Source: Bilabrum cf. latius (Eukaryota). From it: DNA of 64,000 nucleotides. The notes below the pieces were generated by a model. That model had not been told where the DNA came from. It saw nothing but the letters and a program-made list of their open reading frames with translations, and did not search any database. Made by a program: the position numbers and the translations under genes. Shown piece after piece: positions 18,872 through 59,846 of the stretch; positions within the stretch are counted from its first letter, which is position 1; each line of letters opens with the position of its first letter. The stretch spans positions 62,001-126,000 of the forward strand of contig OZ237753.1 in NCBI GenBank assembly GCA_965178125.1, given 5' to 3'.

Positions 18872-21800
18872 ATCGAAGATGAAGACAACTTTACACCCCG
18901 GGCCAAGGCGGCGCGTGCCATCACCACAACACCGCGTGCTCACCTCGAGCGACACCAAAACAGTACATTTTCCGGCGTTTGCCTGTCGGGATTTGGTTAC
19001 AACACATGTAAGTAATAAAATTCTCTCGGCAATTTGTGTGTGCATAGCTATCTCTGGCCCTGTGTGCCGTTTCAAGGCAAGAAGAAGTGGCACGCGCCAC
19101 TTTACCACAACTTGACTTGCGATGAATATCCACCTCCGCCGCAGCAGAAGGGCATCATGAAGGCTGTATTATGTTCAATAGCAGTTGCTTTGAGTTTGGC
19201 GGCCGCATCGGACCCCCTTAAGGACGGTCTTGGCGATGACGTGGAGCTGCTCATCCACCTGGACTTTTCAACCAATTCGTATGGGCGAGTACTCACGCAG
19301 AAGAACTCTGATAAGGCAAAGCTAGGCTCTGGGTCTTGGCAAGGCTTGCGTGCGGCGTACACCGCGTTCTCCAACACGTAGATGTCGCCGTGGGTGTACA
19401 CGAGTCGAGTGGGGTGCTTCTCAGCCGCCTACATGACCAGCTCCGTCATCATGGAGTACGTCCCGGCGACAACTGAAGCGGCTGATATGAAGAAGATTGA
19501 TATCAGTAGCAGCCACAACAGGTACATTTTTGCGGTCGGACAGCCTTACACGTACCCAATGCCATTGTATCCTTGGGAGGTCATCAGTATGGGTGAGAGA
19601 CGTACAGCGCCTGTTGCACTCTCGTATGTCACAATCAGCCGCAAGGGTCTGCAGCGTTGTGGTGATGCCTGATTGTACAGGTTGGCATAGCATTGGCACG
19701 TCGTCCAAGTATCCATGATTCGCACGTTCTGTGTCGCAGGCCGCATCGTCAGGAGCTACGGTCAGCGAGTCCGCAACGGCTGGAACCTCGGCTGGGACGG
19801 CACCGTGACTTAGTACTACTACGCCAACCCGGCTTCTGCCAGAAACCGGCCCGTGCTTGGATTCATGGGCCGGTCTGGAACCGCTGGCTCAGCCAATTCG
19901 CAGGCACAGGCGTCGCTCAAGAAGGAGGAGCTGCCGTACAACTTCGGTTTCTCCTCGTATAGCGGCTGGCGTGACGAGAACCCGATGGTGATGGCGGGGT
20001 GGACCAAGAAGGTAGGAACAGAGCACCAGTTCCACGTGGGTCTGAACGACGACATCTCCGAGAGCCCTGCCTCGGGCACTAGGAACCAACAGACGTTCCA
20101 AGGCGTGTCGGCCTCGTATTCGAGCCTGCGGGACTTCACCGGAGCCGTCTACTCAACTGGTGAGCAACATTGGAGCTGTTGTTGCAAAAGCACGAGCCTG
20201 TATAGCCCATGCGTGATGCCCTTGTCTCCTTGATTCCTTGCTCTCGCAGCCAGCCGCCTCCGCATCGGCAGGGACTATGGGGAGGTGCAGGGGCGCACCG
20301 TCAACGGGATGCCGTACATAGTGAGTTTTCCGCATGCTTTGACAAATGGATTGCATGTCAGCGGCTGTGGCAATTAGACTGGTGTCTCCTTCTACAACCA
20401 CATGAATCCCCCCTCCGCAGAACGAGATCAGGCCGAGGAGCGGCCTCAGTTACATGCTCGAGTACCTCGTTTACACAGCCCCCGCCGACAAGCCCATGAA
20501 CACCACCACCATGAAGCGGATCAGTACTCATCTTCAGAACAAGTACAAGCCCTCAGTGCTCCCTGCAGTCAGCCAGCTGGTCCCCACCAGCTGGCTGCCC
20601 GACTACCAGAACGAGCTAAGCCGATCCGGATGCGGCACCTACAACTCTACATCACGGACCTACTCGCTGCCACTAACCCGAAACTCTGCCTGTTACATGT
20701 ATTGTAACGGAGGAAGGAGTTTCTCTCAGGGGTACTACATGTCCTGGTCCAGGACAAACTGGTACACGTACGGCTACGCAAGCTCCGGCACCTGGGGCAG
20801 CGGGATGGGACGGTGCGGGCGGAACTGCCCCAACCTGGGCATGCCCGAGAATACTGAATCCTGCAGGCGCGTGCACAACTACATGGGCTTCGGGGACGAC
20901 CTGGACGAGCTCAAGAGCAAGGAAGGACCTGAGTGGTATCCCATGCTTGTGCCGCTGCCCGCTTTTACTGCCTCCATCAACGCGGCAGGCGACGCCTGGA
21001 AGGTCGAGAACGAGCGGCTGGTGCACAAGGATGCTAGCGGGGGAGGCGGATGCCCCTCTGGATCATCGTCCACAAACGCCAAGCCCGTTGCTGACTTTGA
21101 CTACCTTGGAGCCATGGGCAGCGCGCAGACATACCGGCACACATTCGGCCGCACGCTCAATGTCGAGGCCAAGTTCATCATTCCGGAGGGGACGAGGGCG
21201 CAGCTGCTGCTCCGCAAGACCACTTCTCTCACTAGCGGATACGCTGTCAGCCTCAAGGGCGGCGAGGACAGGCACCACATGACCTACTGGAGCTATGGGT
21301 ACGACGCGACGGAGCGCAGGTGGATGTACACCGAGACGGAAGTCCGTTTTACAAAGGACTGCAGTATCCCAACGGACGACACGGAGGAGCCCCAGCTCAT
21401 CCGAGCCGAGCAGGACGCCACCAATATCAAGGTGTACTGCGGTGACGAGCTCGTGTCCACGTTCAGCGATCCGTCCCGGAGCGTCCCACTCAACTTCGGC
21501 ATGCAGGGCATTGCGGCGCAGGGCGACGGCGTGGAGATCGACGATTTCAAGGTGTGGACTGACTGCAAGGACAGCACGCAGTGCGATGGGATCGTGACTG
21601 GCGAGTTCTGCGAATTCCAGTGCAGGGCGGGATACGTGGCCGTTGCCGATTCGGAAGAGATGAGGTCCTGCGACTCGAACGGTGACTTTGCTGGCGAGGA
21701 CCTCAAGTGCCAGCCGGCGCCCCCGACCATCCCCGACTTGGATGATGCGCTGGAGGTGGAGGAGCGCGTGATGCCCGGCACGCTGGTGGGCAGCCCCATC

Positions 21801-24800
21801 CAGGGCACCACACTGAGCGACGACCAGGCCATCCTGTGGTCCATCAAGCCGGAAGGGAACAACGACGGGCAGACAAAGGACGCCAGCGATAACTTCTTAC
21901 CGGTGTTCACGATCGGGCTGTGTGACGGCTAGATCAAGGTGGCCAATGCTATCTTGGACTACGCCGTCAAGACCCAGTACGTGATCACTGTGGTGGGCAA
22001 GACGGACGGCAAGGATATCGCTGCCAGCGAGGTCGACGTGACCATCAACGTGCTGGACCGCAACGACCCGCCCGTCATGGACTAGATGGATCCCGTGATG
22101 GTCACCGTGAACGAGAACTCTGCAGTGGGTACCAACGTGGTGCCAGGGCCGTTTACTGCTACCGACCCAGACGGCGAGACTGAGTTCAAGTGGGAGATCC
22201 TGGCCGGCAACGATGACGGCTTCTTCACGATCGGCGAGTCATCGGGCCAGCTGTCGGTGGCCAAAGAGGGTCTCAACTATGAGGAGAAGAAAGAGCACCT
22301 GCTGTTCGTGACCGTGGCGGATGCAGAGGGCCTCAATGACGGGCGTGCTATCAACGTGACTCTCAACGACGTCAACGATCCTCCGGAGGTACCACCTACT
22401 GTCCACGTGGTGGGCGAGCTCAACGCAACTGCGGGTTTCCCCATTGCGGTGCTGGAGTAGGATGATGAGGACAACGATGACATCGATTACAGCATCGTGT
22501 CGGTCACTCGGCTACCTGACTTCGTGGATGGAAACTTCCTCACCGACACATCCACGACTCGCGAAGCACTGCCGCCGAACGAGATCGTCTTTGATCTCCG
22601 GGACACGCCCGCCACTAATGACCCCACCGGCACCAAGCAGCTCGAGTTCAAGGTAGACCTGACCTACCACACGGCCCCCCAGGAAGACGACCCCATGTAC
22701 CCCATCGAGTACGAGGGCAGGCTAGTGAGGGGCGTGTACGAGGTCGAGCTAGCGGCCGATGATGGGCGCGTGTCGACTCCCACCGTGGGCAAGCAGATGG
22801 TCATCATCGCGTCCGACCTCACCGCTCGGGACCTGGCCTCTGAGCCTCTGCTGACTGCTGTGCAGGTGTGCGACGGACAGTGCAACGACCAGGTGCGGGA
22901 GGAGGATGAGTACGTCTACCGGGCCATGCTGACTAGGGGGACTGCCGGGGGGCGCACCCAGGGCGTGAGGCTGCTGGGGCTCAACCTCGTAGAGACCACA
23001 AACCTCAAGGTGTGGTACGAATCGGTCAACATGATGCCCAAGCTGTCGTACAATGCCACCAACTGCGTGGTAAAGAAGAGCGGTGACATGGATGACGAGG
23101 GCAACGACCTCGACTACATGACGTGCTAGGTGCCTCCAGGCGTGGGACGTGGCCTGCGGTGGCACGTGGTCATGCGGGGGGAACAGGTGCGTACCCTGGA
23201 GCCGCTGTTCGCCGACTACGGAGCACCTGCCGTGACCTCCATCGCCGGCCCCAACGACCTCGTCAACACGCGGCCCATGAGCACGGCAGGCGGTGAGACG
23301 ATCATCCTGACTGGCACCAACTTGGGCTTCGAAGGGATGGACCTGAACCTGGTGCAGGTCAGGTACGGCTTCTAGTCCGACCTCATGGGTCCCGTGGATG
23401 CTAGCAACTTTGACAGTTTGCCATTCTAGGCGTCTGTGCAGGCGGATGGGGTGGAGTACGGCGAGCTGAGAGTCAAGACCGACGAGGGGTACGGGCAGGG
23501 ACTGAGCCTGTACGTGCGCGTGGGAGGGACTGTGTCAGAGGTGGCTGCTGCGGACCAGATCGAGTACGCCGCTCCTGCGGTGACGAGTGTGAGCGTGCCA
23601 GCCGGATCCATGCACGGCTTGGACTCGATGGACACTGCGGGCGGCGAGACCATCGTGGTGGAAGGTCGCAACTTCGGGCCCATGACCGACATCAGCTCAA
23701 GGGCGCTTGTGCCCCGCGTGTCGTATGGCACCAGGCCCAGCACCATCCCCGGGCTGGTGACTGGCATTGGTGATCACGAGTACGTGAGCGACGTGACGTG
23801 CACCAAGGACGTCGGATCGGAGCACACGAGGCTGACATGCACCACGGGGGCTGGTGTGGGCCGGAACCACCGCCTCAAGGTGGTGATGCCAGGGCAGGTG
23901 TCCACCACATTCGACCTGGAGAGCAGCCCCTCCTCGGAGCAGCTGAGCTACCTGCCACCGGTGATCACCCGCGTGTTCGGGCCTGGTGCCAAGGAGGCCT
24001 CCACCTCTGGAGGCGATCTGGTGGAGATCGACGGCGAGCACTTCGGACCTGTGGCCATGAACGCCATCGAGTTGGTGCAGTTCGGGCTGGAGAGCGATTT
24101 CCCGGCAGGTAGCGACCTGTACGAAATGGACCAGGACGAGGCCACGGGGGCATGCGAGGTGGTGCGTGACCCGGCCAGGCACGGTGTCAGCCGCGTCAAC
24201 TGCCGACTGATCCCGGGCCGCGGTGCGGGCTACTCTTGGGCCCTGCGCGTGGGCGGGCAGATGACCGAGGCCATCTTCGAGGCTAACTCGAGCTACTCTG
24301 CCCCCACCATTGCAGGCTTTGACGACGTCTCCGATGCCGAGAACATCGATGCGGTGAAGCAAGGTCGCACGGAGGGCGGAGACCTCATAGAGATCTATGG
24401 CGACAACTTCGGCCCTGTGATGGACGACCACGTGGCCATCTCGTACAGGCTGGTCATGGCCCGCTTCGACGAGAGCGGCAATGCGATCGACCCCGAGATC
24501 AGGACGTTCGCCGTGGATGGCAGCAGCTGCAGCATGGTGGTGGATCACAAGCGGATCCGGTGCGAGCTGGCCGTGGGTGGCGGTGCCGACCTCAAGTGGA
24601 CCATGGTGGTGGCTGGGCTGACTTCCAGAGACCCGGTGACTGCGTATGCTCTGCCCGTGATCGACTCGATCGAGCGCTTCAACGGGGCTGGGCTGTTCCC
24701 TGCCACGGTGAGTGGCGAGCCGATCTCGGTGGACCCCATGCCCGCCATGCCTTAGGACCGGCAGCTGAGCCCCGAGGGCGGAGACTACGTGGAGCTCGTG

Positions 24801-27800
24801 GGCCGCAACTTCGGGCCGTCGGGAGACAATCAGCTGCTGCAGGAGGTGCGCTTCGGCAACGGGGCCCACCAGTACGTGCTGCCTGAGTCCGAGTACCGCA
24901 TCATGACGGACCACCAGAGGATCAGGGTACGGGTGCCCCCAGGTGTGGGAGCCAATATGCGGTTCGTGGTAGTTGTGGCCGACTAGGAGTCGCCCGAGTC
25001 CCAATCCACCGTGTCGTATGCCGCGCCCGAAGTCATGTCAATCTCACCTGCCTTCGGGCACGCGCAGCAGGACGAAGAGAGCCCCCAGATGGTCAAGGTG
25101 ACAGGCAGGCACTTTGGATTCGCGGACAGCCGATCCACGCTGACTGTCAACTTTGGCCACGCTACAGACGGCACGATGACTGCCGGCATCGCAACCACGG
25201 AGCCGATGTCTGGCACTGCTCGCTTCGAGCCTGCTGCTGGCAATGCCACGTACCCAGCCGGATACGACCGGGACGCTGTGCAGACGGTCAAGTTCGCGCT
25301 GCCCTCTGGAGTGGGCAAGGACAGGGCGGTGGTGCTGGTCAACTCACCCGCGGGCTTCCCCCAGCTTGCACTTCGCAGCGCCGTGGACATGTAGGCCTAC
25401 ACGACCATGGTGACCGAGGGACCCATCAATGCGTCCGTGGTGGTGACCGACCCCAAGGTGTTCACCTACCAGAACCCCTCGATCGACTTCCTCTCGCTGG
25501 ATCCCATCGGCACCACGGGCCCGTACGCCAACCAGCGGGCCAACTTGTTCCCCGGACAGGAAGGCATCAAGCTGCTGCGCGTGTACGGCCGCAACTTTGG
25601 TGCCTCGGCGCAGGAGCTCAACGACCAGGTGGAGCGCAAGGTGCTCATCGCGCCCTCGGACGACCAGTCGGACTTCTCGGCAGATACGGGCCGCGTGCAG
25701 GTGGTGGACTGGACCGACACCGTGATTGAGGTCATGACCGATGTGGACTCTGGGTTCGCGAAGGTTCACCTGGGTTCCTTCTCATACGACGGTGCCATGG
25801 AGAAGAGCCAGACGTCTCCTGCCGCCCAGTACTACGACGTGTCTCCCCAGGTGGCAGGTCTGCAGGGAGCCGACGCCTTCAACACGGCGGGAGGGGAGAT
25901 CCTCGAGCTCAAGGTGGCCCGCATCGGGCAGGCACAGAGCATCCAGGTGGACGTGGGTGGACAGCCGTGCCCGCTGGTGCTACCATCCGACCCGTCGCAG
26001 ACTGTGTCCGACGCCGACTTCCCCACTGTGATCCTACAGGCCCAGGTGGATGCCGATCCGAGCTACAACTCGCTCATTGACGCGGACAATGGAGGCATGC
26101 AGTGGGACATCGCCTGCGTGATGCCGGCTGGACCCCGCGGCGAGTTCGTGAACGACGGCTCGCAGGTGCCGGTGGTGGTGCAGCGCTTCTCGGCCGGCAG
26201 CGATGGCATCGTGTCTGGTCCGCAGTATATCTCGTACGCGCCTCCGTCCATCACAGAGGTACAGGTCTGGCACGATACGTCGGCCAATCCATCCGGACAG
26301 CCCGACGAGGTGTTCACTCCAACGGACGGCGTGGTATACACACCTACTCGAGGGGCCATCATGCGCATTGTGGGTGAGAACTTCGGGCTGTGCCCCCAGG
26401 TGCGCCTCGGCTTCGGCAACATGTTCGAGATGGGCGAGCAGTACCAGGATGAGACATCTGCGTGCAGACACACGACCCAGGACCCGGCCCGCCGCAGCCG
26501 CTCGCACACCATGCTGGAGCTGCGTGTGCCCCAGGGCGAGGGCGATGGCACGGACCCGGCCCTGGGAGGCATGCCGTTTGCCTTCCGCGTGACGGTGGGC
26601 GGGCAGGACTCACAGCCCATGGTGCACTCCCACACGCCCCCCGCCATTCAGAGCGTGACCCTCAACGGACTGCCCAGGGGACCTACCCGCGGCGGTGTGC
26701 GCGTGCTAGTGCGCGGCACCAACTTCGGCGAGCCCAGTCCGCTGCAGGCGGACACTGGAGTGGTGGCTCAGCTGGCCGTGCACATCGGCCGCGACAGCTC
26801 TCTCTCCCAGGAACGTGCCGCCGAGCAGGAGATCACCGACACGAGCGCGCCCGGCATGCTCAACTGCTCCGACCCCGTGCGCATCCCCGCGCCCGCCAAC
26901 CGCCCCGCCTACGACGAGATGGAGTGCACTCTGGCTGAGGGCACCGGTGCTCGTCTGGATGCAGTGGTCAGCGTGGCAGGCGTGCGGTCGGAGCCGCTGC
27001 AGGACGCCTTCGCGTACATGAAGCCCTCCATCACAGGCGCCACTGTGTACGCCGCCACTGCCAGCCAGGAGGTGGTGCAGGCCGAGGACGGCACCACGCA
27101 GGTGACTGTGCGCCGCGGACCTGCGGCGGGCTTCTACGAGGTCGAGCTGGATGGCGAGAACTTTGGAGCCAGAGATAACGACACCTCCTGCGCCTTTGTG
27201 GCATGGCCCAACAGGGACGCAGAGGAGAGCGCGGCGCCGCTGGGGACTCGCCTGCGGAACCTGGTGTGCGACCACTCGGAGACTGTGTACGGCGAGGGCG
27301 AAGTGTGGCACGGGCACGTGCTGAGCTGGACCCACGACAGGGTGCGGCTGTTGATGCCTCCGGGCGTGGGCATGCGCGACATCACCCTGCGTGTGCGCGG
27401 ACAGCAGCCCGAGGGCGCCATGCAAGGGCCCAAGCTCAGGGGCATGCAGGCCGGCATCGAGGGTGTGGCGTTTCAGTACAACGACCCTGAGATCGACTCG
27501 ATCGAGGCGCTACCCAACAGCGTATTTGACATCCCCACGGCGGGAGGGGCGCAGCTCGTGCTCAAGGGCAGGAACTTCGGCCGCGGGCCCATCACCAACC
27601 CCAACGTGCTGCAGTCAGCGGCACAGACCTTCGTGGCGGGAAGCGTGCCACTGCCCCTGCACACCCCCGAGGGCGACGGCGAGCTGGACATGGGCACCAG
27701 CAGCCTGCCGCAGGGCGTGCTGCCCACGGCCGGCATGGCGGTGCAGTTCTACCGTGCCTGCCTCTCCGTGGCGCGAGGCCTGGATGGCACCTCCCAGCTG

Positions 27801-30800
27801 GGCCCCGACTCGGCCGTGGCGCAGTCGGAGCTGACCGTGACGGGCGCCGAGGGCTGCGAGTCCAGGAGTCTGTGGAGCCCGGGCCAGCCCACCATCGTGC
27901 GGCACCAGGACGACGAGATCGTGTTCGTGACCCCCGAGGGCCTGGGTACCAACCGGGATGTGTTTGTGTCTTACTTCGAGCAGAACCCGTCTGCTCGCGT
28001 GACTGACGGGGACGTGCTGGAGATCCGTAGCAACGTGCTGCTGGTCAACTACTCGAGGCCGTTCATCACGTCCGTGACTCCGCAGACCGTGGAGGTGCGC
28101 GAGCTGGAGGGCAGGCACCCCATCACCATCAAGGGCAGGAACTTCGGACCCACGGGATCCACCGAGGGCTGGAGCGAGGCAGAGCGCCTGTCCCGCATCC
28201 ACATCGGAGCAAGGGAGTGCTTCATGCCGGGCGCTCTGCCCGAGGGAGCCCAGCGCTCCGTGGCCGAGGTGCTGGATGAGTTCACCGGGGACACTACCCA
28301 GCGGGCCGTGTTGGAGTGCCACCTGGACGCAGACACAGTGGGGCCCAAGAACATCACCGTGCAGGTGGCTGGCCAGCGCCGCTTCGCAGACATCACCAGG
28401 CCGCCGCTGGTGCAGGTGGTATGCGACCGGGACTACTTTGGTCTGGAGGGCGAGATGTGCCTGCCCTGCCCCGAGGGAGGCGTGTGCGACGGCTACGACC
28501 AGTTCAACAACACGCACACCATGCCGAGGCCTCTGGAGAACTTCTACAACCTCAACTCGTCCGACTCCGCCAACTTCAACATGCTGCAGATCTGCCCGCC
28601 AGGCCGGCAGGTGGTGGCGCCCAGGCACCCGCTGGACGAGGACCAGCCCGCGATCCACGAGGGCGGGCCCAGGGACGTCTGTATCGTGGCGTGCGAGCCG
28701 CAGTGGGCGTGCGTGGGCGACAACTTCTGCGCCCGAGGGTACGCCTCCAAGGCGCCCATGTACAGGTGCGCCAGCTGCGACACGGGCTTCTACAGGCGCG
28801 CGGGCGAGTGCGTCAAGTGCCCCGACAACCCGTGGATCCTCATCGTGGCGTTTGTGCTGATGGCCATGACGGCCGGATGCGTGGGCCTGTGGCTGAACCG
28901 CAGCAAGATCAACATCGCGCTGATCGCCATTGGTGTGGACTACTTCCAGGTGCTGGCCATCTTCGCCAACGCCCGCGTGAGCTGGCCCCCCATGCTCAAG
29001 GACCTGTTCCACATCCTGTCCGCCTTCAACTTGAACCTCGAGATCACGGCGCCCGAGTGCACTGTGCCCGAGCTGGCCTTCCAGACCAAGTGGTACTTCA
29101 TTGTGCTGCTACCTCTGGCCGTCATCGCCATGGGCATGGTGGCCTTTGCGGCCTTCTGGCTGTACGCGCTCTTCACCAACATGCAGAAGGACCCCAAGGG
29201 GCAGCGGTACGCTCCTCTGGTGGCTGGCCTGATCGTGCTGCTGTACTTCCTGTACCTGCACGAGACCAAGACCATCCTGGACGTGTTCAACTGCGTGCCC
29301 ACCACACCGCCAGACGGACAGAAGTACCTGCAGGCCGTGTTCGAGCCTTGCGGACAGAAGGGTGGCGTGCAGCTGCAGCTCATGCCCTTCGCCGTGATCG
29401 CGCTGATCGTGTACACGTTCGGCTTCCCCGCGTGGGTTGCCTTTATGCTAGTGGTCAACAAGGAGACCATCATGCTGGACCAGCTCAGGAGGGCCCAGGG
29501 ACACGGATACACGTTCGTGTCATCCGATCCCGAGGCCATCAAGCAGGCCGCAGCATTCCGTGTCAAGTTCCAGCGTCTGTACTACTACTTCAAGCCCGAG
29601 TACTACTGGTGGGTCATGACCATCATCGCGCGCAAGGCTCTCATCGCCTTCTGCTCGCTCATGTTCAACACCAACGCGTCCTTCCAGATGGCCGCCACGC
29701 TGCTGGTCATCTTCCTGTGCTACACGCTGCAGGTCAAGTACAACCCGTACATGCCCCCAGCCGAGTATCAGGACACGCTCATCGACTGGGCCGGCAAGTC
29801 CGTGGACGAGGGTCTCCGCAAGGCCCAGGCGGACCGCAGCTCCTCGGATGCCATCGACAAGGCCGCTGCGCAGAACTCGGCCAACCGCCGCGATGAGCTG
29901 CTGGACACCACCGGCATGGCCAGCACCGGGTCCATGGCGCGCGCCCAATAGAACGGGTGCGCGGGCTGCCTGCAGTCCACGGGCTCTGCCGCCTTCATCA
30001 TGTGCGCTCGATCCCCTGAGCTGTACTACTCGCTGTGGGACACGATCCGCACGCAGGACAAGAGGCAGGACAAGGCCAACCAGAGGTCCCAGAACAGCCT
30101 CAGCAGCACGCGCATCAACGCAGCCGCCGTGGATCCCAAGGACGTGATGGGCGTGATGGGCAGCAACGTGATGAACTGGAACACTGTGGAGACGGTACTG
30201 CTGTTCTGCGCCATCCTCGTGACGCTGGGCGGCATCATGCTCGAGTCGGGCCGCTTCGACCAGGAGGGCTACCAGGACCAGCGGGACGCCATCACCATCA
30301 TCCTCATGCTCATCATCATGTCATCCATCACGTACTACTTCACGGTCTTCGGGCTGGAGCTGTACATGCTGGTGACGGCCAAGGACCGCGCCCGTCGACT
30401 GCAGCAGGCCAGCATCAAGAAGGTCAAGGAGGGCAAGGCCGCCCGCAAGATCGACGTGGACATGTCCAACGCCGAGTACAGCGCCAACCCGCTCATGGAC
30501 GTCAGCAAGGCCGGCAAGGACAGCGGCGCTGACGGCGACTCTGCTCTCCTGCAGAACATGCGCGGCATGATGGAGCTGGAGAGCCTGGACCGGCACTCGT
30601 GGGTGCGCCTCAGGGGCCAGTTCAAGGAGTTCGTGCTGTCGTACGAGGAGATGTCCAAGGAGTACGGCAGGATGACCAAGGAGAGCATGCGGGCGGCGGC
30701 CAGCGGCGTTTCTCCTCTCGTGGGCGCCTCGTCCCCGCGTGTAGGGTCTGCTGGGTCCCCTCAGCTAGGCGGGTCAAGTTCGATGGGCATGAACCCCATG

Positions 30801-31290
30801 AGCCTGGGCATGGCTCGTGGGGGCAAGAAGAAGGAGTTCGGAAGGGCCGCAGCGTCGAGCCGCTCCCTGGGGCGGCGCAACAGCGGCCGCAACCCACTCC
30901 TGAGGAAGGGGTCCATGAGCAAGGCGGGATCGGCTGCATCGATCGGAGTGGAGGAGAGCCAGTGAGAGAGTGAATCGTATCGAGGTGAGTCGTAACGACT
31001 CTTCAGCTGGCAGACAGACTTTAGGAGTGCATCGCGCAACGAGAGCGGCGCTTCAGCGAATGTTCGCAAGGCCGCGGTGGAATACCGCGTGTCACCATGC
31101 CTCAGTAATAGTGCATCCACCGTAAGGGCGAAAGCCAAGTACGGTTGCTGCACGGCATGCGTGTACACGCGGTTCCATCTGCGGCATGCGACGCGAAGCG
31201 CCGCCTCCACCCCGTCTTCACTCGCAAAGATATATCATTATCTTGCGCTTCCGTGCTTGATTTTGTAAATCTATTGTGCATGTTATATCA
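18872..31290 (+). repeat. Segmental duplication, copy 1 (~12.4 kb; copy 2 at ~45461-58040)
   Basis: Colinear identity from ATCGAAGATGAAGACAA through the gene and 3' flank. Offset is 26585 before, and 26747 after, a 162-bp intron insertion. Confidence 0.95.
19157..30965 (+). CDS. Giant cell-surface protein, copy 1 (~3,820 aa): signal peptide, sushi/CCP, cadherin repeats, many IPT/TIG repeats, Cys-rich region, 9 TM (nonagonal-cadherin-like); exons 19157-19592, 19740-20159, 20250-20320, 20421-30965
   Basis: Three GTGAG...CGCAG introns keep frame; 12 in-frame TAG; TGA stop. Motifs: MKAVLCSIAVALSLAAA; CEFQCRAGY...C; LDY/DRNDPP/ATDPD/LNYE/DVNDPP; repeated GG..I...G.NFG; CLPCPEGGVC; nine hydrophobic segments. 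Confidence 0.9.
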
Positions 31291-31785: not shown

Positions 31786-33624
31786 ATGTCACCGGCTGAG
31801 CGGACGCTGTGTGGATTTGCTCACGGTTTCCCGATGGGCCGCACAGCAGCTGTCCAGCAGCAGGTCAAGCTGCCGACAAACTCCATCCCGACTGAGGCTG
31901 AGGCTGCAGGGCACTGCGAGCTGGGAGCCAGCCTGCGTGAGTCGCGTAGGTTGGCCATCGCAGCGTCATCTGCACCGAGCACCCCGGTAAGCGCGGTGGT
32001 TGCGATCCCTAAGAAGAAGGTTGGCGACTATCGGCTCTTGGTGGATGCATCGGACAAGCGGGCGGGCACCCTGTTGGGGGCCAACGTGGCAGTCGAATAC
32101 GAGCGCTGGACGAGTGCCCCGATGGCATCGATCGGCGAGCTGATGCGCAAGGCCGTGCGCATCTCGCAGCACACCTCCGAGCCCCTGGCGGGCCTGACAA
32201 TTGACCTCAGCAAGGCCTTCTGGCAGTTCCCGCTGGCTGTTGGTGACATTCCGTATCAGCAATTGCGCATCGGCGACATGGTGCTGCTCGGCACGCGCCT
32301 CGGCATGGGCAACAAGAGCAGCCCTGGTCACGTCACCACGGCGACGACATGCTTCGGTGACGCCTTTGAGGAGCGCTGGAATTTCGATCCTGTGCGGCCC
32401 ACGACTGCAACGTCGACCTTCGTGGATGATTTTGGTTTAGTGGCACCGTTGACGCGGATTGACCACTTGGCCATGCAGTTCGTGCATGATGCTGCGCGAG
32501 TGGGCCTCCAAGTCAGCGAGTCGAAAGCACTGGAAGTGGGCACCCCGGGCCCTCGGTTCGATTTCCTAGGGTACACGGTAGCGCTGGATGAGTTCAAGGT
32601 GTACGTGCAGCCGTCCAAGGTCACGAAGGCGGTCGGGCTCATTGACGGCATCTTGGGGGCCACCCAGGCTGGAATCCGTCGGTCAACGGGAGAATCGCTG
32701 GTGGGCCTGCTGTGCTACGTGGCAGAGGCCATCCTGCCTGCCAAACCGCGCTGCAGACCTCTGTTCTCGTGGCTGCATGCCAACGAGCACGCCTCGGTAC
32801 TCTCCGTTCCAGCCGAGGTTCAGCGGACCCTGCGATGGTGGCGACATGCCCTGCTGCACCAGGATGGCCGCTCGTTCCCGCGACAGCACGATCCCGAACG
32901 CGATCCAGTGATGTTCACGGACGCATCGCTGCATGGATGGGGTGGCTACTTGGTCTGGCCCTCAGGTGCCACGTAGGCCATCTACGGCACGTGGCCGGAT
33001 TCTACCTGCCTACTGTCCAACGACATCTCGGCTCTCGAACTCGGATGCATTGAGATCCTGTGTGATCATTGGAAGAACGAACTGCGGGGACATGTGTTGC
33101 TTGTGCGGTGTGACAACTCCGCCTCTGTGCATTGTTTGCGTCGTGGGTTTTGTCGTAGTGTCCGCATGGCTCGCATCCTCGCTGACCTGTTCACCACCCT
33201 CTGCTCCCACGACGTGTAGGTTTGGAGCCGGCACATACCAGGGTTAGAGAACACCTGGGCCGACCGCTTGTCCAGGGAAGGTCACCCGACAAACTTGCCG
33301 CCGCACTGGGAATCGGTGAGGAAGCTCCCGACGCCTACGAGGACTTGGTCGAACTTGCGGCCATCAAGGCCGCCTCGAGCATCGAGGCGAATGGCACCAC
33401 GGCACTTCGGCACTGGGCAGCGTACGGCCGCAGATACGGCCTCGACCTGGCGCCACCGGCCTTTGGCTCCATCGGTCCGGCACGCAACGAGGCCTTCGAA
33501 GTGGAACTCGGCAGATTCATCACGTACGTGGCGGCGGCCGAGCCGGGCATCAGCGGCGCCTCCGCAAGCCAGTACGCAGCGCAAGTGGCGTCCTTGTACA
33601 AACGACTAGGAGGAGTCGCAGTGA
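31786..33624 (+). CDS. Reverse transcriptase-RNase H of the YR retrotransposon
   Basis: IPKKKVGDYRLLVDAS, IDLSKAF, LGMGNKSSP, FVDDF, FLGY; RNase H FTDASLHGWGG...ISALEL...CDN...HIPGLENTWADRLSR. Continuous only if TAG 32974 and 33217 are sense; TAG 33607 precedes the TGA. Confidence 0.85.
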
Positions 33625-34473
33625 AAGGACTTGGTGACTTTGGCCATGCAGTGGCCAGGCACTACACGGCAGCCAAGCCAACCCTTGCGAGTCTGCACCG
33701 CACGCCCATCCCGTTGTCGGCAGTGCGGCGCTTCTTTGAGTTCCAGCCATCCACCCCCGGCGAAAGTGCGGCCTAGTTGGCGGGTGCACTGGCCTTTGGG
33801 GGGACCATGCGCCTGGGCGAGGCCACCGGAGAGGCACGGGCCGCCTCTGACCCGCATCGCCTCAGGCATGTATCCTGGGCAATCGAGGACAATCAGGTGA
33901 TCAGCTGCTCCCTGCACCTGCGGTTCACCAAGGCGGGTGGACCAGCCACGGTGGCTATTGCAGCCCGATCCCCTGTGTAGGTGGACAAATGCGGGTTAAC
34001 AGGGCAGCACATGCTGCCCTGTTTACCTTCTCGTCCGGCACGTCGTGACAAGGTTGACCTCAGCGGGAATCCCGGTCACCTCGCCCCACCACCTGCACAA
34101 CGCCTGCCAGAACAGTCAGGTGTTGTTGTTCCCGGAGATCGCATCGCAAGGTCGCCGTAAGACGCGGCACATCGTCGCAGCCGATGTCGTACGCCTGGTG
34201 CGGAGCTGTGCAAGCCACCACGATGATGCGAGTGGGTGGCATGGGCACAGTTTCCGCATCACCAGCACCACCACAATGGTGCGACTGGGCATCGAGCACG
34301 GCATTGTGCAGCGTCTTGGACGGTGGGCATCCACCAAGAGCATGAACACCTACATCCGGCAGGAGGCCGACGGGCTGCCAGCGATCGATATTGGTTGGAC
34401 GCACCTTGAGCTGCAGCGCGCACCACAGGCGGCGCTGCTCGAGGCGGTGGCCCAAGCTCGGGCGTCCGACTAA
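33222..34473 (+). pseudogene. Tyrosine recombinase with one frameshift near 33960-34012
   Basis: FGGTMRLGE (catalytic R) and FTK in one frame, with TAG 33774 and 33978. CPVYLL, GHSFR, LGRW and YIR (H-x-x-R, W, Y) lie in the +1 frame; ends TAA. Confidence 0.85.
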
Positions 34474-40429: not shown

Positions 40430-41127
40430 GGAAGGAAGGAAGGAAGGAAGGAAGGAAGGAAGGAAGGAAGGAAGGAAGGAAGGAAGGAAGGAAGGAAGGA
40501 AGGAAGGAAGGAAGGAAGGAAGGAAGGAAGGAAGGAAGGAAGGAAGGAAGGAAGGAAGGAAGGAAGGAAGGAAGGAAGGAAGGAAGGAAGGAAGGAAGGA
40601 AGGAAGGAAGGAAGGAAGGAAGGAAGGAAGGAAGGAAGGAAGGAAGGAAGGAAGGAAGGAAGGAAGGAAGGAAGGAAGGAAGGAAGGAAGGAAGGAAGGA
40701 AGGAAGGAAGGAAGGAAGAGGAAGGAAGGAAGGAAGGAAGGAAGGAAGGAAGGAAGGAAGGAAGGAAGGAAGGAAGGAAGGAAGGAAGGAAGGAAGGAAG
40801 GAAGGAAGGAAGGAAGGAAGGAAGGAAGGAAGGAAGGAAGGAAGGAAGGAAGGAAGGAAGGAAGGAAGGAAGGAAGGAAGGAAGGAAGGAAGGAAGGAAG
40901 GAAGGAAGGAAGGAAGGAAGGAAGGAAGGAAGGAAGGAAGGAAGGAAGGAAGGAAGGAAGGAAGGAAGGAAGGAAGGAAGGAAGGAAGGAAGGAAGGAAG
41001 GAAGGAAGGAAGGAAGGAAGGAAGGAAGGAAGGAAGGAAGGAAGGAAGGAAGGAAGGAAGGAAGGAAGGAAGGAAGGAAGGAAGGAAGGAAGGAAGGAAG
41101 GAAGGAAGGAAGGAAGGAAGGAAGGAA
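40430..41127 (+). repeat. (GGAA)n microsatellite, ~700 bp
   Basis: Pure GGAA array with one interruption near 40718. Confidence 0.99.
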
Positions 41128-45460: not shown

Positions 45461-48400
45461 ATCGAAGATGAAGACAATACACCCGAGGCGGCGCGTGCCA
45501 TCACCACAACACCGCGTGCTCACTTCGAAAGACACTGAACCGTCCGCTTCCTGACCTCTGTCTGCTGGGAATTGGTTAGAATACATGTAAGCGAAAAACT
45601 TCAATCTGTACTCCGCGTGTACATAGTCTAGCTATATCTGGCCCTGTGTCTGCCATTTCAAGAATGATCAAGCGGCACGCGCCACTCTGCCATAACTTGA
45701 CTTGCAATGAAAATCCACCTCCGCCGCAGCAGAAGGGCGCCATGAAGGCTGTATTATATTCAATAGCTCTTTCCCTGAGTGTAGCAGCCGCGTCAGACCC
45801 TCTTAAGGACGGTCTTGGCGATGACGTGGAACTGCTCATCCATCTGGACTTTTCAACCAATTCGTTTGGGCAAGTACTCACGCAGAAGAACTCTGGCAAG
45901 GCAAAGCTAGGCTCTGGGTCTTGGCAAGGCTTGCGTGCGGCGTACACCGCGTTCTCCAACACGCAGATGTCGCCGTGGGTGTACACAAGTCAGGTGGGGT
46001 GCTTCTCAGCCGCCTACATGACCAGCTCCGTCATCATGGAGTACGTCCCGGCGACAACCGAAGCCGATGACATGAAGAAGATTGATATCAGTAGCAGCCA
46101 CAACAGGTACATTTTTGCGGTCGGACAGCCTTACACGTACCCAATGCCATTGTATCCTTGGGAGGTCATCAGTATGGGTGAGAGACGTACAGCGCCTGTT
46201 GCACTCTCGTATGTCACAATCAGCCGCAAGGGTCTGCAGCGTTGTGGTGATGCCTGATTGTACAGGTTGGCATAGCATTGGCACGTCGTCCAAGTATCCA
46301 TGATTCGCACGTTCTGTGTCGCAGGCCGCATCGTCAGGAGCTACGGTCAGCGAGTCCGCAACGGCTGGAACCTCGGCTGGGACGGCACCGTGACTTAGTA
46401 CTACTACGCCAACCCGGCTTCTGCCAGAAACCGGCCCGTGCTTGGATTCATGGGCCGGTCTGGAACCGCTGGCTCAGCCAATTCGCAGGCACAGGCGTCG
46501 CTCAAGAAGGAGGAGCTGCCGTACAACTTCGGTTTCTCCTCGTATAGCGGCTGGCGTGACGAGAACCCGATGGTAATGGCGGGGTGGACCAAGAAGGTAG
46601 GAACAGAGCACCAGTTCCACGTGGGTCTGAACGATGACATCACCGAGAGCCCTGCCTCGGGCACTAGGAACCAGGAGACGTTCCAAGGCGTGTCGGCCTC
46701 GTATTCGAGCCTGCGGGACTTCACCGGAGCCGTCTACTCAACTGGTGAGCAACATTTGAGCCATCGTTGCAAATATGCTAGCCTGTATAGCCCATGCGTG
46801 ATGCCCTTGTCTCCTTGATTCCTTGCTCTCGCAGCCAGCCGCCTCCGCATCGGCAGGGACTATGGGGAGGTGCAGGGGCGCACCGTCAACGGGATGCCGT
46901 ACTGGGTGAGATTGGGTCCTGTAATGCTTGCGCGGAGTTCAGTCACAAATGTGTAGACCAACCGTAGACTCGAACCGGATTGACACCTCGCCAGTCGATC
47001 ACAGGATCACGCCAGTATCAGATGAACGCTCGCGAACGAACAGCTGACCTTGCCAGCCACAGACATGGCCAGTTTGCCGCATGCCTTGATAAATGCATTG
47101 CATGTCAGCGGCTGTGGCGATTACACTGGTGTCTCCTTCTACAACCACATGAATCCCCCCTCCGCAGAACGAGATCAGGCCGAGGAGCGGCCTCAGTTAC
47201 ATGCTCGAGTACCTCGTTTACACAGCCCCCGCCGACAAGCCCATGAACACCACCACCATGAAGCGGATCAGTACTCATCTTCAGAACAAGTACAAGCCCA
47301 CTGTGCTCCCTGCAGTCAGCCAGCTGGTCCCCACCAGCTGGCTGCCCGACTACCAGAACGAGCTAAGCCGATCCGGATGCGGCACCTACAACTCCACATC
47401 ACGGACCTTCTCGCTGCCGCTCACTCGAAACTCTGCCTGCTAGATGTTCTGCAACGGAGGAAGGAGTTTCTCTCAGGGGTATTTCATGTCCTGGTCCAGG
47501 ACAAACTGGTACACGTTCGGCTCCGCAAGCTCCGGCACCTGGAACAGCGGGATGGGACGGTGCGGACGGAACTGCCCCAACCTGGGCATGCCGGAGAATA
47601 CTGAATCCTGCAGGCGCGTGCACAACTACATGGGCTTCGGGGACGACCTGGACGAGCTCAAGAGCAAAGAAGGACCTGAGTGGTATCCCATGCTTGTGCC
47701 GCTGCCCGCTTTTACTGCCTCCATCAACGCGGCAGGCGACGCCTGGAAGGTCGAGAACGAGCGGTTGGTGCACAAGGATGCCAGCGGGGGAGGCGGATGC
47801 CCCTCTGGATCATCGTCCACAAACGCCAAGCCCGTTGCTGACTTTGACTACCTTGGAGCCATGGGCAGCGCGCAGACATACCGGCACACATTCGGCCGCA
47901 CGCTCAATGTCGAGGCCAAGTTCATCATTCCGGAGGGGACGAGGGCGCAGCTGCTGCTCCGTAGGAGTACTTCCATTACGTTTGGGTACGCTGTCAGCCT
48001 CAAGGGCGGCGAGGACAGGCACCACATGACCTACTGGAGCTATGGGTACGATGCGACGGAGCGCAGGTGGATGTACACCGAGACGGAAGTCCGTTTTACA
48101 AAGGACTGCAGTATCCCAACGGACGACACGGAGGAGCCCCAGCTCATCCGAGCCGAGCAGGACGCCACCAATATCAAGGTGTACTGCGGTGACGAGCTCG
48201 TGTCCACGTTCAGCGATCCGTCCCGGAGCGTCCCACTCAACTTCGGCATGCAGGGCATTGCGGCGCAGGGTGACGGCGTGGAGATCGACGATTTCAAGGT
48301 GTGGACTGACTGCAAGGACAGCACGCAGTGCGATGGGATCGTGACTGGCGAGTTCTGCGAATTCCAGTGCAGGGCGGGATACGTGGCCGTTGCCGATTCA

Positions 48401-51400
48401 GAAGAGATGAGGTCCTGCGACTCGAACGGTGACTTTGCTGGCGAGGACCTCAAGTGCCAGCCGGCGCCCCCGACCATCCCCGACTTGGATGATGCGCTGG
48501 AGGTGGAGGAGCGCGTGATGCCCGGCACGCTGGTGGGCAGCCCCATCCAGGGCACCACACTGAGCGACGACCAGGCCATCCTGTGGTCCATCAAGCCGGA
48601 AGGGAACAACGACGGGCAGACAAAGGACGCCAGCGATAACTTCTTACCGGTGTTCACGATCGGGCTGTGTGACGGCTAGATCAAGGTGGCCAATGCTATC
48701 TTGGACTACGCCGTCAAGACCCAGTACGTGATCACTGTGGTGGGCAAGACGGACGGCAAGGATATCGCTGCCAGCGAGGTCGACGTGACCATCAACGTGC
48801 TGGACCGCAACGACCCGCCCGTCATGGACTAGATGGATCCCGTGATGGTCACCGTGAACGAGAACTCTGCAGTGGGTACCAACGTGGTGCCAGGGCCGTT
48901 TACTGCTACCGACCCAGACGGCGAGACTGAGTTCAAGTGGGAGATCCTGGCCGGCAACGATGACGGCTTCTTCACGATCGGCGAGTCATCGGGCCAGCTG
49001 TCGGTGGCCAAAGAGGGTCTCAACTATGAGGAGAAGAAAGAGCACCTGCTGTTCGTGACCGTGGCGGATGCAGAGGGCCTCAATGACGGGCGTGCTATCA
49101 ACGTGACTCTCAACGACGTCAACGATCCTCCGGAGGTACCACCTACTGTCCACGTGGTGGGCGAGCTCAACGCAACTGCGGGTTTCCCCATTGCGGTGCT
49201 GGAGTAGGATGATGAGGACAACGATGACATCGATTACAGCATCGTGTCGGTCACTCGGCTACCTGACTTCGTGGATGGAAACTTCCTCACCGACACATCC
49301 ACGACTCGCGAAGCACTGCCGCCGAACGAGATCGTCTTTGATCTCCGGGATACGCCTGACACCAATGACCCCACCGGCACCAAGCAGCTCGAGTTCAAGG
49401 TAGACCTGACCTACCACACGGCCCCCCAGGAAGACGACCCCATGTACCCCATCGAGTACGAGGGCAGGCTAGTGAGGGGCGTGTACGAGGTCGAGCTAGC
49501 GGCCGATGATGGGCGCGTGTCGACTCCCACCGTGGGCAAGCAGATGGTCATCATCGCGTCCGACCTCACCGCTCGGGACCTGGCCTCTGAGCCTCTGCTG
49601 ACTGCTGTGCAGGTGTGCGACGGACAGTGCAACGACCAGGTGCGGGAGGAGGATGAGTACGTCTACCGGGCCATGCTGACTAGGGGGACTGCCGGGGGGC
49701 GCACCCAGGGCGTGAGGCTGCTGGGGCTCAACCTCGTAGAGACCACAAACCTCAAGGTGTGGTACGAATCGGTCAACATGATGCCCAAGCTGTCGTACAA
49801 TGCCACCAACTGCGTGGTAAAGAAGAGCGGTGACATGGATGACGAGGGCAACGACCTCGACTACATGACGTGCTAGGTGCCTCCAGGCGTGGGACGTGGC
49901 CTGCGGTGGCACGTGGTCATGCGGGGGGAACAGGTGCGTACCCTGGAGCCGCTGTTCGCCGACTACGGAGCACCTGCCGTGACCTCCATCGCCGGCCCCA
50001 ACGACCTCGTCAACACGCGGCCCATGAGCACGGCAGGCGGTGAGACGATCATCCTGACTGGCGCCAACCTGGGCTTCGGAGGGATGGACCTGAAGCTGGT
50101 GCAGGTCAGGTACGGCTTCTAGTCCGACCTCATGGGTCCCGTGGATGCTAGCAACTTTGACAGTTTGCCATTCTAGGCGTCTGTGCAGGCGGATGGGGTG
50201 GAGTACGGCGAGCTGAGAGTCAAGACCGACGAGGGGTACGGGCAGGGACTGAGCCTGTACGTGCGCGTGGGAGGGACTGTGTCAGAGGTGGCTGCTGCGG
50301 ACCAGATCGAATACGCCGCTCCTGCGGTGACGCGTGTGAGCGTGCCAGCCGGATCCATGCACGGCTTGGACTCGATGGACGCTGCGGGCGGCGAGACCAT
50401 CGTGGTGGAGGGTCGCAACTTCGGGCCCATGACCGACATCAGCTCAAGGGCGCTTGTGCCCCGCGTGTCGTATGGCACCAGGCCCAGCACCATCCCCGGG
50501 CTGGTGACTGGCATTGGTGATCACGAGTACGTGAGCGACGTGACGTGCACCAAGGACGTCGGATCGGAGCACACGAGGCTGACGTGCACCACCGGGGCTG
50601 GTGTGGGCCGGAACCACCGCCTCAAGGTGGTGATGCCAGGGCAGGTGTCCACCACATTCGACCTGGAGAGCAGCCCCTCCTCGGAGCAGCTGAGCTACCT
50701 GCCACCGGTGATCACCCGCGTGTTCGGGCCTGGTGCCAAGGAGGCCTCCACCTCTGGAGGCGATCTGGTGGAGATCGACGGCGAGCACTTCGGACCTGTG
50801 GCCATGAACGCCATCGAGTTGGTGCAGTTCGGGCTGGAGAGCGATTTCCCGGCAGGTAGCGACCTGTACGAAATGGACCAGGACGAGGCCACGGGGGCAT
50901 GCGAGGTGGTGCGTGACCCGGCCAGGCACGGTGTCAGCCGCGTCAACTGCCGACTGATCCCGGGCCGCGGTGCGGGCTACTCTTGGGCCCTGCGCGTGGG
51001 CGGGCAGATGACCGAGGCCATCTTCGAGGCTAACTCGAGCTACTCTGCCCCCACCATTGCAGGCTTTGACGACGTCTCCGATGCCGAGAACATCGATGCG
51101 GTGAAGCAAGGTCGCACGGAGGGCGGAGACCTCATAGAGATCTATGGCGACAACTTCGGCCCTGTGATGGACGACCACGTGGCCATCTCGTACAGGCTGG
51201 TCATGGCCCGCTTCGACGAGAGCGGCAATGCGATCGACCCCGAGATCAGGACGTTCGCCGTGGATGGCAGCAGCTGCAGCATGGTGGTGGACCACAAGCG
51301 GATCCGGTGCGAGCTGGCCGTGGGTGGCGGTGCCGACCTCAAGTGGACCATGGTAGTGGCTGGGCTGACTTCCAGAGACCCGGTGACTGCGTATGCTCTG

Positions 51401-54400
51401 CCCGTGATCGACTCGATCGAGCGCTTCAACGGGGCTGGGCTGTTCCCTGCCACGGTGAGTGGCGAGCCGATCTCGGTGGACCCCATGCCCGCCATGCCTC
51501 AGGACCGGCAGCTGAGCCCCGAGGGCGGAGACTACGTGGAGCTCGTGGGCCGCAACTTCGGGCCGTCGGGAGACAATCAGCTGCTGCAGGAGGTGCGCTT
51601 CGGCAACGGGGCCCACCAGTACGTGCTGCCTGAGTCCGAGTACCGCATCATGACGGACCACCAGAGGATCAGGGTACGGGTGCCCCCAGGTGTGGGTGCC
51701 AATATGCGGTTCGTGGTAGTTGTGGCCGACCAAGAGTCGCCCGAGTCCCAGTCCACCGTGTCGTATGCCGCGCCCGAAGTCATGTCAATCTCACCTGCCT
51801 TCGGGCACGCGCAGCAGGACGAAGAGAGCCCCCAGATGGTCAAGGTGACAGGCAGGCACTTCGGATTCGCGGACAGCCGATCCACGCTGACCGTCAACTT
51901 TGGCCACGCTGCAGACGGCACAATGACTGCAGGTATTGCAACCACGGAGCCCATGTCTGGCACTGCTCGCTTCGAGCCCGCGGCTGGCAATGCCACGTAC
52001 CCAGCCGGATACGACCGGGACGCTGTGCAGACGGTCAAGTTCGCGCTGCCCTCTGGAGTGGGCAAGGACAGGGCGGTGGTGCTGGTCAACTCACCCGCGG
52101 GCTTCCCCCAGCTTGCACTTCGCAGCGCCGTGGACATGTAGGCCTACACGACCATGGTGACCGAGGGACCCATCAATGCGTCCGTGGTGGTGACCGACCC
52201 CAAGGTGTTCACCTACCAGAACCCCTCGATCGACTTCCTCTCGCTGGATCCCATCGGTACCACGGGCCCGTACGCCAACCAGCGGGCCAACTTGTTCCCC
52301 GGACAGGAGGGCATCAAGCTGCTGCGCGTGTACGGCCGCAACTTTGGTGCCTCGGCGCAGGAGCTCAACGACCAGGTGGAGCGCAAGGTGCTCATCGCGC
52401 CCTCGGACGACCCGGCGGACTTCTCGGCAGATACGGGCCGCGTGCAGGTAGTGGACTGGACCGACACCGTGATTGAGGTCATGACCGATGTGGACTCCGG
52501 GTTCGCGAAGGTTCACCTGGGTTCCTTCTCATACGACGGTGCCATGGAGAAGAGCCAGACGTCTCCTGCCGCCCAGTACTACGACGTGTCCCCCCAGGTG
52601 GCAGGTCTGCAGGGAGCCGACGCCTTCAACACGGCGGGAGGGGAGATCCTCGAGCTCAAGGTGGCCCGCATCGGGCAGGCACAGAGCATCCAGGTGGACG
52701 TGGGCGGACAGCCGTGCCCGCTGGTGCTACCATCCGACCCGTCGCAGACTGTGTCCGATACCGACTTCCCCACTGTGATCCTACAGGCCCAGGTGGATGC
52801 CAATCCGAGCTACAACTCGCTCATTGACGCGGACAATGGAGGCATGCAGTGGGACATCGCCTGCGTGATGCCGGCTGGACCCCGCGGCGAGTTCGTGAAC
52901 GACGGCTCGCAGGTGCCGGTGGTGGTGCAGCGCTTCTCGGCCGGCAGCGATGGCATCGTGTCTGGTCCGCAGTATATCTCGTACGCGCCCCCGTCCATCA
53001 CAGAGGTACAGGTCTGGCACGATACGTCGGCCAACCCATCAGGACAGCCCGACGAGGTCTTCACTCCAGCGGACGGCGTGGTATACACGCCTACTCGAGG
53101 GGCCATCATGCGCATTGTGGGTGAGAACTTCGGACTGTGCCCCCAGGTGCGCCTCGGCTTCGGCAACATGTTCGAGATGGGCGAGCAGTACCAGGATGAG
53201 ACATCTGCTTGCAGGCACACGACCCAGGACCCGGCCCGCCGCAGCCGCTCGCACACCATGCTGGAGCTGCGTGTGCCCCAGGGCGAGGGCGATGGCGCGG
53301 ACCCAGCCCTGGGAGGCATGCCGTTTGCCTTCCGCGTGACGGTGGGCGGGCAGGACTCGCAGCCCATGGTGCACTCCCACACGCCCCCCGCCATTCAGAG
53401 CGTGACCCTCAACGGACTGCCCAGGGGGCCTACCCGCGGCGGTGTACGCGTGCTAGTGCGCGGCACCAACTTCGGCGAGCCCAGTCCGCTGCAGGTGGAC
53501 ACTGGAGTGGTGGCTCAGCTGGCCGTGCACATCGGCCGCGACAGCTCTCTCTCCCAGGAACGAGCCGCCGAGCAGGAGATCACCGACACGAGCGCGCCCG
53601 GCATGCTCAACTGCTCCGACCCCGTGCGCATCCCCGCGCCCGCCAACCGCCCCGCCTACGACGAGATGGAGTGCACTCTGGCTGAGGGCACCGGTGCTCG
53701 TCTGGATGCAGTGGTCAGCGTGGCAGGCGTGCGGTCGGAGCCGCTGCAGGACGCCTTCGCGTACATGAAGCCCTCCATCTCCGGCGCCACTGTGTACGCC
53801 GCCACTGCCAGCCAGGAGGTGGTGCAGGCCGAGGACGGCACCACGCAGGTGACGGTGCGCCGCGGACCTGCGGCGGGCTTCTACGAGGTCGAGCTGGATG
53901 GCGAGAACTTTGGAGCCAGAGATAACGACACCTCCTGCGCCTTTGTGGCATGGCCCAACAGGGACGCAGAGGAGAGCGCGGCGCCGCTGGGGACTCGCCT
54001 GCGGAACCTGGTGTGCGACCACTCGGAGACTGTGTACGGCGAGGGCGAAGTGTGGCACGGGCACGTGCTGAGCTGGACACACGACAGGGTGCGGCTGTTG
54101 ATGCCTCCGGGCGTGGGCATGCGCGACATCACCCTGCGTGTGCGCGGACAGCAGCCCGAGGGCGCCATGCAAGGGCCCAAGCTCAGGGGCATGCAGGCCG
54201 GCATCGAGGGTGTGGCGTTCCAGTACAACGACCCGGAGATCGACTCGATCGAGGCGCTACCCAACAGCGTGTTTGACATCCCCACGGCGGGAGGGGCGCA
54301 GCTCGTGCTCAAGGGCAGGAACTTCGGCCGCGGGCCCATCACCAACCCCAACGTGCTGCAGTCAGCGGCACAGACCTTCGTGGCGGGAAGCGTGCCACTG

Positions 54401-59697: not shown

Positions 59698-59846
59698 GAT
59701 ACGGCCTGTTGCGGCTAATATGAGCAACTTGTTGCGTGTATGCAAAACCATCCGGAGCAAATTTTGCAGTAGCGAGCTAAATCATCGAAAAACAGTGTTA
59801 TACCTTGGGGGCTAGCTCACTCGATCAGGAACTTATCTGTGACCAA

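Follow-up and report, generated by a model that had tools for sequence, protein, structure and literature searches.

UAG very probably read as glutamine in a GC-rich nuclear genome: evidence from a duplicated cadherin and TIG-repeat gene and its neighbours

The 64-kb window of contig OZ237753.1 (the whole stretch of DNA analysed, to which all positions refer) holds two copies of a gene for a large membrane protein with cadherin and IPT/TIG repeats, and the coding sequence (CDS) of each copy contains in-frame TAG codons. The explanation regarded as very probable is that UAG stands for glutamine in the nuclear code of a GC-rich, intron-poor eukaryote, with UGA as the sole terminator seen in the window. 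At least five genes use TAG as a sense codon. Glutamine is the best-fitting amino acid for this codon when the paralogues and homologues are compared. The window is approximately 60% GC and its long open reading frames (ORFs) are open only with readthrough of TAG. Five genes contain 23 in-frame TAGs, no TAA and no TGA in 6,603 codons, and TAG makes up 5-15% of the glutamine-type codons per gene.

The duplicated gene resides in a segment of 12.4 kb that is present twice in the window. The copies are 92.8% identical over 1,455 nt and then 98.5% identical over 10,931 nt (blastn). Their alignment runs from 19078 to 31123 without gaps, save for one 162-nt indel at 20315/46900 (MAFFT). The limits of the two copies, taken from blastn of the window against itself and the MAFFT alignment, are as follows:

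18872..31248, + strand: duplicated segment, copy 1
45461..57996, + strand: duplicated segment, copy 2

Runs of 12 studies contain parts of the stretch, and one of them, X6, contributes to the gene model. The four-exon model is built from two joints in X6 contigs and from the GTGAG..CAG boundaries seen in the alignment of the two copies. The kinds of the runs are guesses; X6 is labelled both “RNA?” and “probably DNA”, and its GT..AG joints represent either transcripts or intron-less DNA. In copy 1, the joint 19591>19739 (GT..AG if the cut is moved by +1) marks where exon 1 ends and exon 2 begins. The 3′ end of exon 2 is predicted from a GTGAGC donor and from the continuity of the frame. Introns 3 and 4 are likewise predicted from the sequence, with run X6 giving no cover at 20051-20467. 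The resulting features of the gene, including an intron in the 5′ untranslated region (5′-UTR), are:

19008..19144, + strand: 5′-UTR intron of copy 1, 137 nt, GT..AG; one X6 contig joins 19007 to 19145
19157..19592, + strand: exon 1 of copy 1, with the ATG, a signal-peptide-like start (MKAVLCSIAVALSLAAAS) and TAG 19379 (codon 75)
19740..20159, + strand: exon 2 of copy 1, with the common TAG 19811 (codon 170)
20250..20320, + strand: predicted exon 3 of copy 1, with a TCGCAG acceptor and a GTGAGT donor; no other boundaries close the frame
20421..30965, + strand: exon 4 of copy 1, 3,514 codons and TGA
45742..46177, + strand: exon 1 of copy 2, with CAG 45964 opposite the TAG of copy 1
46325..46744, + strand: exon 2 of copy 2, with the common TAG 46396
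46835..46905, + strand: exon 3 of copy 2
47168..57712, + strand: exon 4 of copy 2, with CAG 51500 and CAA 51731

The CDS in each copy is 11,472 nt in length (3,823 codons), with zero internal TAA or TGA and a terminal TGA. Among the 3,514 codons of exon 4, the coding frame has 10 TAGs and neither TAA nor TGA; TAA and TGA together number 93 and 47 in the other two forward frames. The openness of this frame exceeds chance. The GC content at third codon positions (GC3) is 0.85. The encoded protein has a signal-peptide-like start, 2 cadherin repeats, 13 IPT/TIG repeats and a multi-pass membrane tail. Pfam supports both repeat families (TIG: 1.1e-30, 105.9 bits against a cut-off of 20.9; Cadherin: 5.3e-14, 52.8 bits against a cut-off of 28.8), with the 13 TIG repeats counted by iterated hidden Markov model searches. 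A PDB search with the protein matches CELSR1 and protocadherins.

The initial annotation had assigned TAG to glutamine from the exchange of this codon with CAG and CAA between the two copies, and the codons read exactly as it had described. TAG 19379 of copy 1 corresponds to CAG 45964 of copy 2, TAG 24753 to CAG 51500 and TAG 24984 to CAA 51731. The single exception that it named, TAC 20694 against TAG 47441, is also present. TAG 19379 is located outside the long ORF, in exon 1 and in another frame. The copy offset for exon 1 is 26,585 and not 26,747, since intron 4 has 162 nt more in copy 2. This intron measures 262 nt in copy 2 (46906-47167) versus 100 nt in copy 1 (20321-20420), with the 162-nt indel inside it. 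The donor site of intron 4 is not the same in the two copies, and exon 3 closes with the codon ATA (Ile) in copy 1 but TGG (Trp) in copy 2.

Comparison of the four-exon CDSs gives 12 in-frame TAGs in copy 1 and 10 in copy 2. Exon 4 holds those at 21930, 22083, 22458, 23127, 23373, 23427, 24753, 24984, 25392 and 29949 in copy 1, and those at 47441, 48677, 48830, 49205, 49874, 50120, 50174, 52139 and 56696 in copy 2. TAG is present in both copies at 9 of the 13 sites, the same tally as previously noted: 19811/46396, 21930/48677, 22083/48830, 22458/49205, 23127/49874, 23373/50120, 23427/50174, 25392/52139 and 29949/56696. A codon alignment of the two copies, which is part of the check that had been proposed for the assignment, shows TAG exchanging with CAG, CAG, CAA and once with TAC. 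If TAG is glutamine, three of these four differences are synonymous. The proportion is in line with that of the whole gene, where 123.5 differences are synonymous and 46.5 non-synonymous. Other assignments make at most one of the four synonymous. One of the pairs, TAG 24984 and CAA, is a two-base change; the same codon is CAA in a contig of run X2 and CAG in a contig of run X6. The cadherin motifs, in which TAG and a glutamine codon had been seen to occupy equivalent positions, are also present as quoted (GLCDG[TAG 21930]IKV and GESSG[CAG 22248]LSV).

The substitutions between the copies bear on whether these genes are functional. The CDSs differ by 170 nucleotides, of which 119 are at third codon positions. 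The Nei-Gojobori comparison of copy 1 with copy 2 gives a synonymous rate (dS) of 0.046 and a non-synonymous rate (dN) of 0.005, with dN/dS at 0.118. With TAG as glutamine, the long ORF has 127 codons that differ, 96 of them synonymously. The CDS is free of indels between the copies, while indels are present in the intron and flanks. Because of the low dN/dS, the third-position excess and the indel-free CDS, it is concluded that both copies have been maintained as full-length coding sequence after duplication. This holds also for the region upstream of the private TAG of copy 2 (codons 1-450), where dN/dS is 0.21.

It has also been noted that runs of 951, 700 and 699 nt (21653-22604, 22616-23316 and 23846-24545; copy 2 at +26747) are identical between the copies amid approximately 1.5% divergence. 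The first 450 codons diverge more, with many Tyr/Phe exchanges. The identical runs and the divergent first 450 codons suggest patchy gene conversion.

TAG codons are also found in frame in other genes of the window, each of which is a single uninterrupted ORF:

11078..13501, + strand: ATM1/ABCB7-type mitochondrial ABC transporter, single ORF with TGA end; TAGs at 12272 (amino acid (aa) 399) and 12437 (aa 454)
60720..63470, + strand: sestrin (PA26), from Met41 of ORF 60600-63470; Pfam PA26 1e-82; TAGs at 61755, 61980, 62547 and 63354
58423..59760, - strand: branch-1 histidine phosphatase (His_Phos_1), two in-frame TAGs (aa 59 and aa 110)
31786..33624, + strand: reverse-transcriptase ORF, 3 in-frame TAGs and a TGA end; Pfam RVT_1 1.2e-05, under the curated cut-off

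Alignment columns provide a source of evidence for the amino acid that is separate from the paralogue exchanges. The TAG at ATM1 aa 454 aligns with a Gln in every one of 120 homologues, and also in the PDB chains of Arabidopsis ATM3 and human ABCB7. The second TAG of this gene, at aa 399, falls in a column of E 94, Q 25 and D 1 among 120 homologues. The TAG at aa 110 of the histidine phosphatase lies opposite K and Q. Within the duplicated gene, TAG 24984 occupies the closing column of a TIG repeat, which is Gln in four of the five other repeats aligned there, and TAG 23127 is found in a polar column (K, T, R, E, R, A, R, T, L, H). In the cadherin repeats, TAG 22083 is opposite the Gln of the PVF-E/D-Q motif in two of the three PDB alignments inspected.

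A more distant relative is encoded by a metagenome contig, L001 (2,912 nt, 61.6% GC), which is 44% identical to aa 2296-3268 of the protein of the duplicated gene. The frame L001:1-2910 is open, with four TAGs (aa 12, 327, 367 and 421) and no TAA or TGA. These TAGs lie opposite M, Q, Q and L. Since this relative also has in-frame TAGs, the code with TAG as a sense codon extends, judging from the contig sequence, beyond one species. The relative covers the membrane tail and the last TIG repeats, and the multi-pass membrane domain is approximately 75% conserved in it.

When the mean BLOSUM62 scores are summed over 17 sites, glutamine is the highest at Q 35.0, with E 7.1, M 4.1 and L -14.1. The same sum without the paralogue rows gives Q 21.0, M 5.1 and E 3.1. 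Three sites of the sestrin ORF were left out of the scoring: the TAG at aa 25 is probably in the 5′-UTR, aa 386 is a gap in 146 of 147 homologues, and aa 650 is in a low-complexity insert. The homologue columns and summed scores favour glutamine as the paralogue exchanges do, and the assignment of the initial annotation is supported.

A number of results weigh against this assignment, or narrow the basis on which it stands. The main contrary datum is sestrin aa 461, where the column consists of L 97, I 12, M 10, V 6 and F 3, with no Q (147 of the 150 listed homologues, three near-identical fragments having been dropped). Among the same 147 homologues, the column of sestrin aa 919 varies, with a bias to hydrophobic or aromatic residues (Y 28, L 19, I 14, R 13). 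Cadherin TAG 21930 is opposite A, V, W and V in the PDB alignments inspected, two of the four TAGs of L001 are opposite M and L, and one paralogue exchange is TAC/TAG (Tyr). The paralogue evidence, taken alone, amounts to n = 4 differences, and the scoring columns for the histidine phosphatase, L001, the cadherin PDB alignments and the TIG repeats were read by eye. Termination is in keeping with the assignment, in that 10 of the 10 ORFs that are complete at the 3′ end terminate in TGA and none in TAA or TAG, but 6 of the 10 have family support and two of these are non-independent paralogue copies. In terms of the decoding machinery, the 64-kb window contains no tRNA with a CUA anticodon (ARAGORN finds only a tRNA-Arg(ACG) and Rfam nothing), nor does it contain an eRF1 gene.

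Some of these points could be explained if TAG were a sense codon for Leu, Glu or Tyr, or if its decoding were ambiguous. The leucine-rich column of sestrin aa 461, the L and M opposite the TAGs of L001, the predominance of E at ATM1 aa 399 and the TAC/TAG exchange all favour such a code. However, it is very unlikely in view of the invariant Gln column at ATM1 aa 454, the three of four exchanges to CAG or CAA in a gene with a dN/dS of 0.12, and the summed scores, in which L and E fall far below Q. There is also no exchange with TTG, CTG, GAG or TGG among the paralogue differences. A different possibility is that the code is standard and that glutamine is placed at the TAG sites through U-to-C RNA editing of UAG to CAG, or through very efficient near-cognate readthrough, as either would give this amino acid. 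The C at 24984 in the X6 contig and the lack of a suppressor tRNA in the window are in keeping with this. Nonetheless, X6 and the window disagree at approximately 4% of positions (one contig has 56 differences in 1,463), which makes the C look like a difference between strains or paralogues. Editing or readthrough would need to be near-complete at each of twelve TAGs in one CDS, both copies have kept TAG at 9 of the 13 sites, and a relative at 44% identity has in-frame TAGs as well. We know of no nuclear system that edits every UAG, and a standard code of this kind is considered extremely unlikely.

It had also been recognised at the outset that the exchanges would lose their meaning if both copies were decaying pseudogenes that collect CAG>TAG nonsense changes, each of which is a single transition. 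The location of both copies near a reverse-transcriptase ORF could point the same way. This reading is already contradicted by the substitution pattern, with its dN/dS of 0.118, 119 of 170 differences at third positions and an 11.5-kb CDS without indel, TAA or TGA. In addition, the conserved single-copy genes for ATM1, sestrin and the histidine phosphatase have in-frame TAGs as well. The related suggestion that the TAGs are assembly errors is countered by contigs of run X1, which may be the source sample; these cover 21653-22268 and 22764-23980, holding five TAGs, with 0 letters differing from the window. Pseudogenes and assembly errors together are next to negligible as an explanation.

The reading of UAG as glutamine leaves the status of UAA to be considered. 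There are 0 in-frame TAAs versus approximately 3.7 expected in the 6,603 codons if TAA:TAG follows CAA:CAG (P = 0.025), in a small sample of ORFs that are themselves delimited by TAA. No UAA is seen in either role, sense codon or stop, and the data lean slightly to a change of UAG only. A tandem TGA TGA ends both the ATM1 gene (13499-13504) and the ORF 3682-4884 (4882-4887).

By analogy with other lineages in which UAR (UAA and UAG) or UAG alone has passed to glutamine, a tRNA-Gln with the anticodon CUA would decode UAG, and eRF1 would no longer recognise it. The most direct sign of this code is the paralogue pair, in which synonymous drift following the duplication has moved glutamine positions among TAG, CAG and CAA, under purifying selection of both copies.

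The kind of code is known, and the lineage is possibly one without a prior report of it. The use of both UAA and UAG for glutamine (table 6) is described, in excerpts of PMC11687900 and PMC5304391, for several ciliate lineages, ulvophycean green algae, Hexamita (diplomonads), Streblomastix strix and the aphelid Amoeboaphelidium protococcarum. The window resembles table 6 in that UAG is read as glutamine and UGA is the terminator seen, but differs in that the 6,603 codons of its five genes contain no in-frame TAA. The type in which UAG alone is glutamine and UAA remains a stop (table 15 type) is given in a part of PMC11687900 for Iotanema spirale, Protocruzia tuzeti and two phyllopharyngean ciliate lineages. 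As in this type, only UAG is seen as a sense codon in the window, with glutamine as the best fit; unlike it, UAA terminates none of the 10 ORFs. In some cases such recoding has been linked to AT bias, according to a portion of PMC6394959, whereas the window is approximately 60% GC with GC3 of at least 0.8. The same codon is assigned to the same amino acid in crAss-like phages that use code 15, as set out in part of PMC9523058. In contrast to this phage-encoded switch, the window is from the genome of a eukaryotic cell and contains housekeeping genes and spliceosomal introns.

A mitochondrial ATM1-type transporter, high GC and large contigs are a poor fit to an anaerobic fornicate or a ciliate macronucleus. 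The ATM1 tree sets the query in a clade with Ascophyllum, Tribonema, Triparma, Ditylum, Cafeteria and unnamed sequences, with a support of 97 in the Shimodaira–Hasegawa-like approximate likelihood ratio test (SH-aLRT), and apart from both plants and insects. This was a quick SH-aLRT tree of 37 hand-picked rows out of 237 (the query and 236 matches), drawn without fungal, amoebozoan, alveolate (including ciliate), rhizarian or metamonad rows. The stramenopile placement suggested by this tree is only a lead. As the tree had no fungal row, the organism may instead be an aphelid, a group that includes Amoeboaphelidium, a known UAR=Gln lineage. Stramenopiles are not among the UAG/UAR=Gln lineages in the excerpts of PMC5304391, PMC11687900 and PMC6394959. 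Literature searches for nuclear UAG reassignment in stramenopiles and for aphelid genome statistics brought up no paper with a pertinent title or abstract, with supplements outside the search.

A more specific proposal, which is put forward tentatively, is that of a GC-rich protist lineage not reported before (given the ATM1 placement, perhaps a heterotrophic stramenopile) that would read UAG but not UAA as glutamine and end its genes at UGA. The trait would be common to relatives down to the 44% protein identity of L001, and the proteins in public assemblies would be cut at every TAG by standard-code calling. Few nuclear lineages have reassigned a stop codon; those known can be counted on two hands. 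The high GC and the absence of TAA make this case somewhat unusual. The case bears on how such codes arise, because the DNA is approximately 60% GC with TAG strongly preferred over TAA. This would favour an origin through mutation of a tRNA-Gln anticodon and loss of UAG recognition by eRF1, rather than through disappearance of the codon under AT pressure. If the organism belongs to a known UAR=Gln lineage, the result amounts to no more than a tidy confirmation, from internal evidence, of a code already known.

In practical terms, proteins of this organism in public collections are cut at TAG, resulting in mis-annotated gene content and in full-length proteins that are missed by homology searches. 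Public protein fragments of the sestrin, 100% and 99% identical (aa 470-649 and 767-918; window 62007-62546 and 62898-63353), break off directly ahead of the TAG codons for aa 650 and aa 919. Automated gene calls made with the standard code are splitting the proteins of this organism. A search with the sestrin C-terminus found no longer proteins in the protein collections. Searches of the collections with ATM1 gave no match above 60% identity; full-length proteins of the organism are absent there.

Pfam searches of seven further ORFs of the window gave no family. The reverse-transcriptase ORF sits between the gene copies, just downstream of copy 1 only, and is followed by a 312-aa ORF without a family (31786-34157 for both). 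This retroelement seems to use the host code and may be linked to the duplication. Also between the copies there is a near-perfect (GGAA)n microsatellite at 40430-41127, with 175 copies and 99% matches, which is responsible for the strong skew in both GC and AT at 40-42 kb. An island of approximately 40% GC, in surroundings of approximately 60% GC, extends from 36000 to 38700 between the copies, with no Pfam-supported ORF found nearby. GGGGCA-type hexamer arrays with periods of 6, 18, 36 and 48 are located at 7953-8163, inside the ORF 7088-8434, where they code for low-complexity runs of Gly, Ala, Arg and Gln. The tRNA-Arg(ACG) at 17889-17961, the sole tRNA gene in the window (ARAGORN), lies approximately 1 kb upstream of copy 1.

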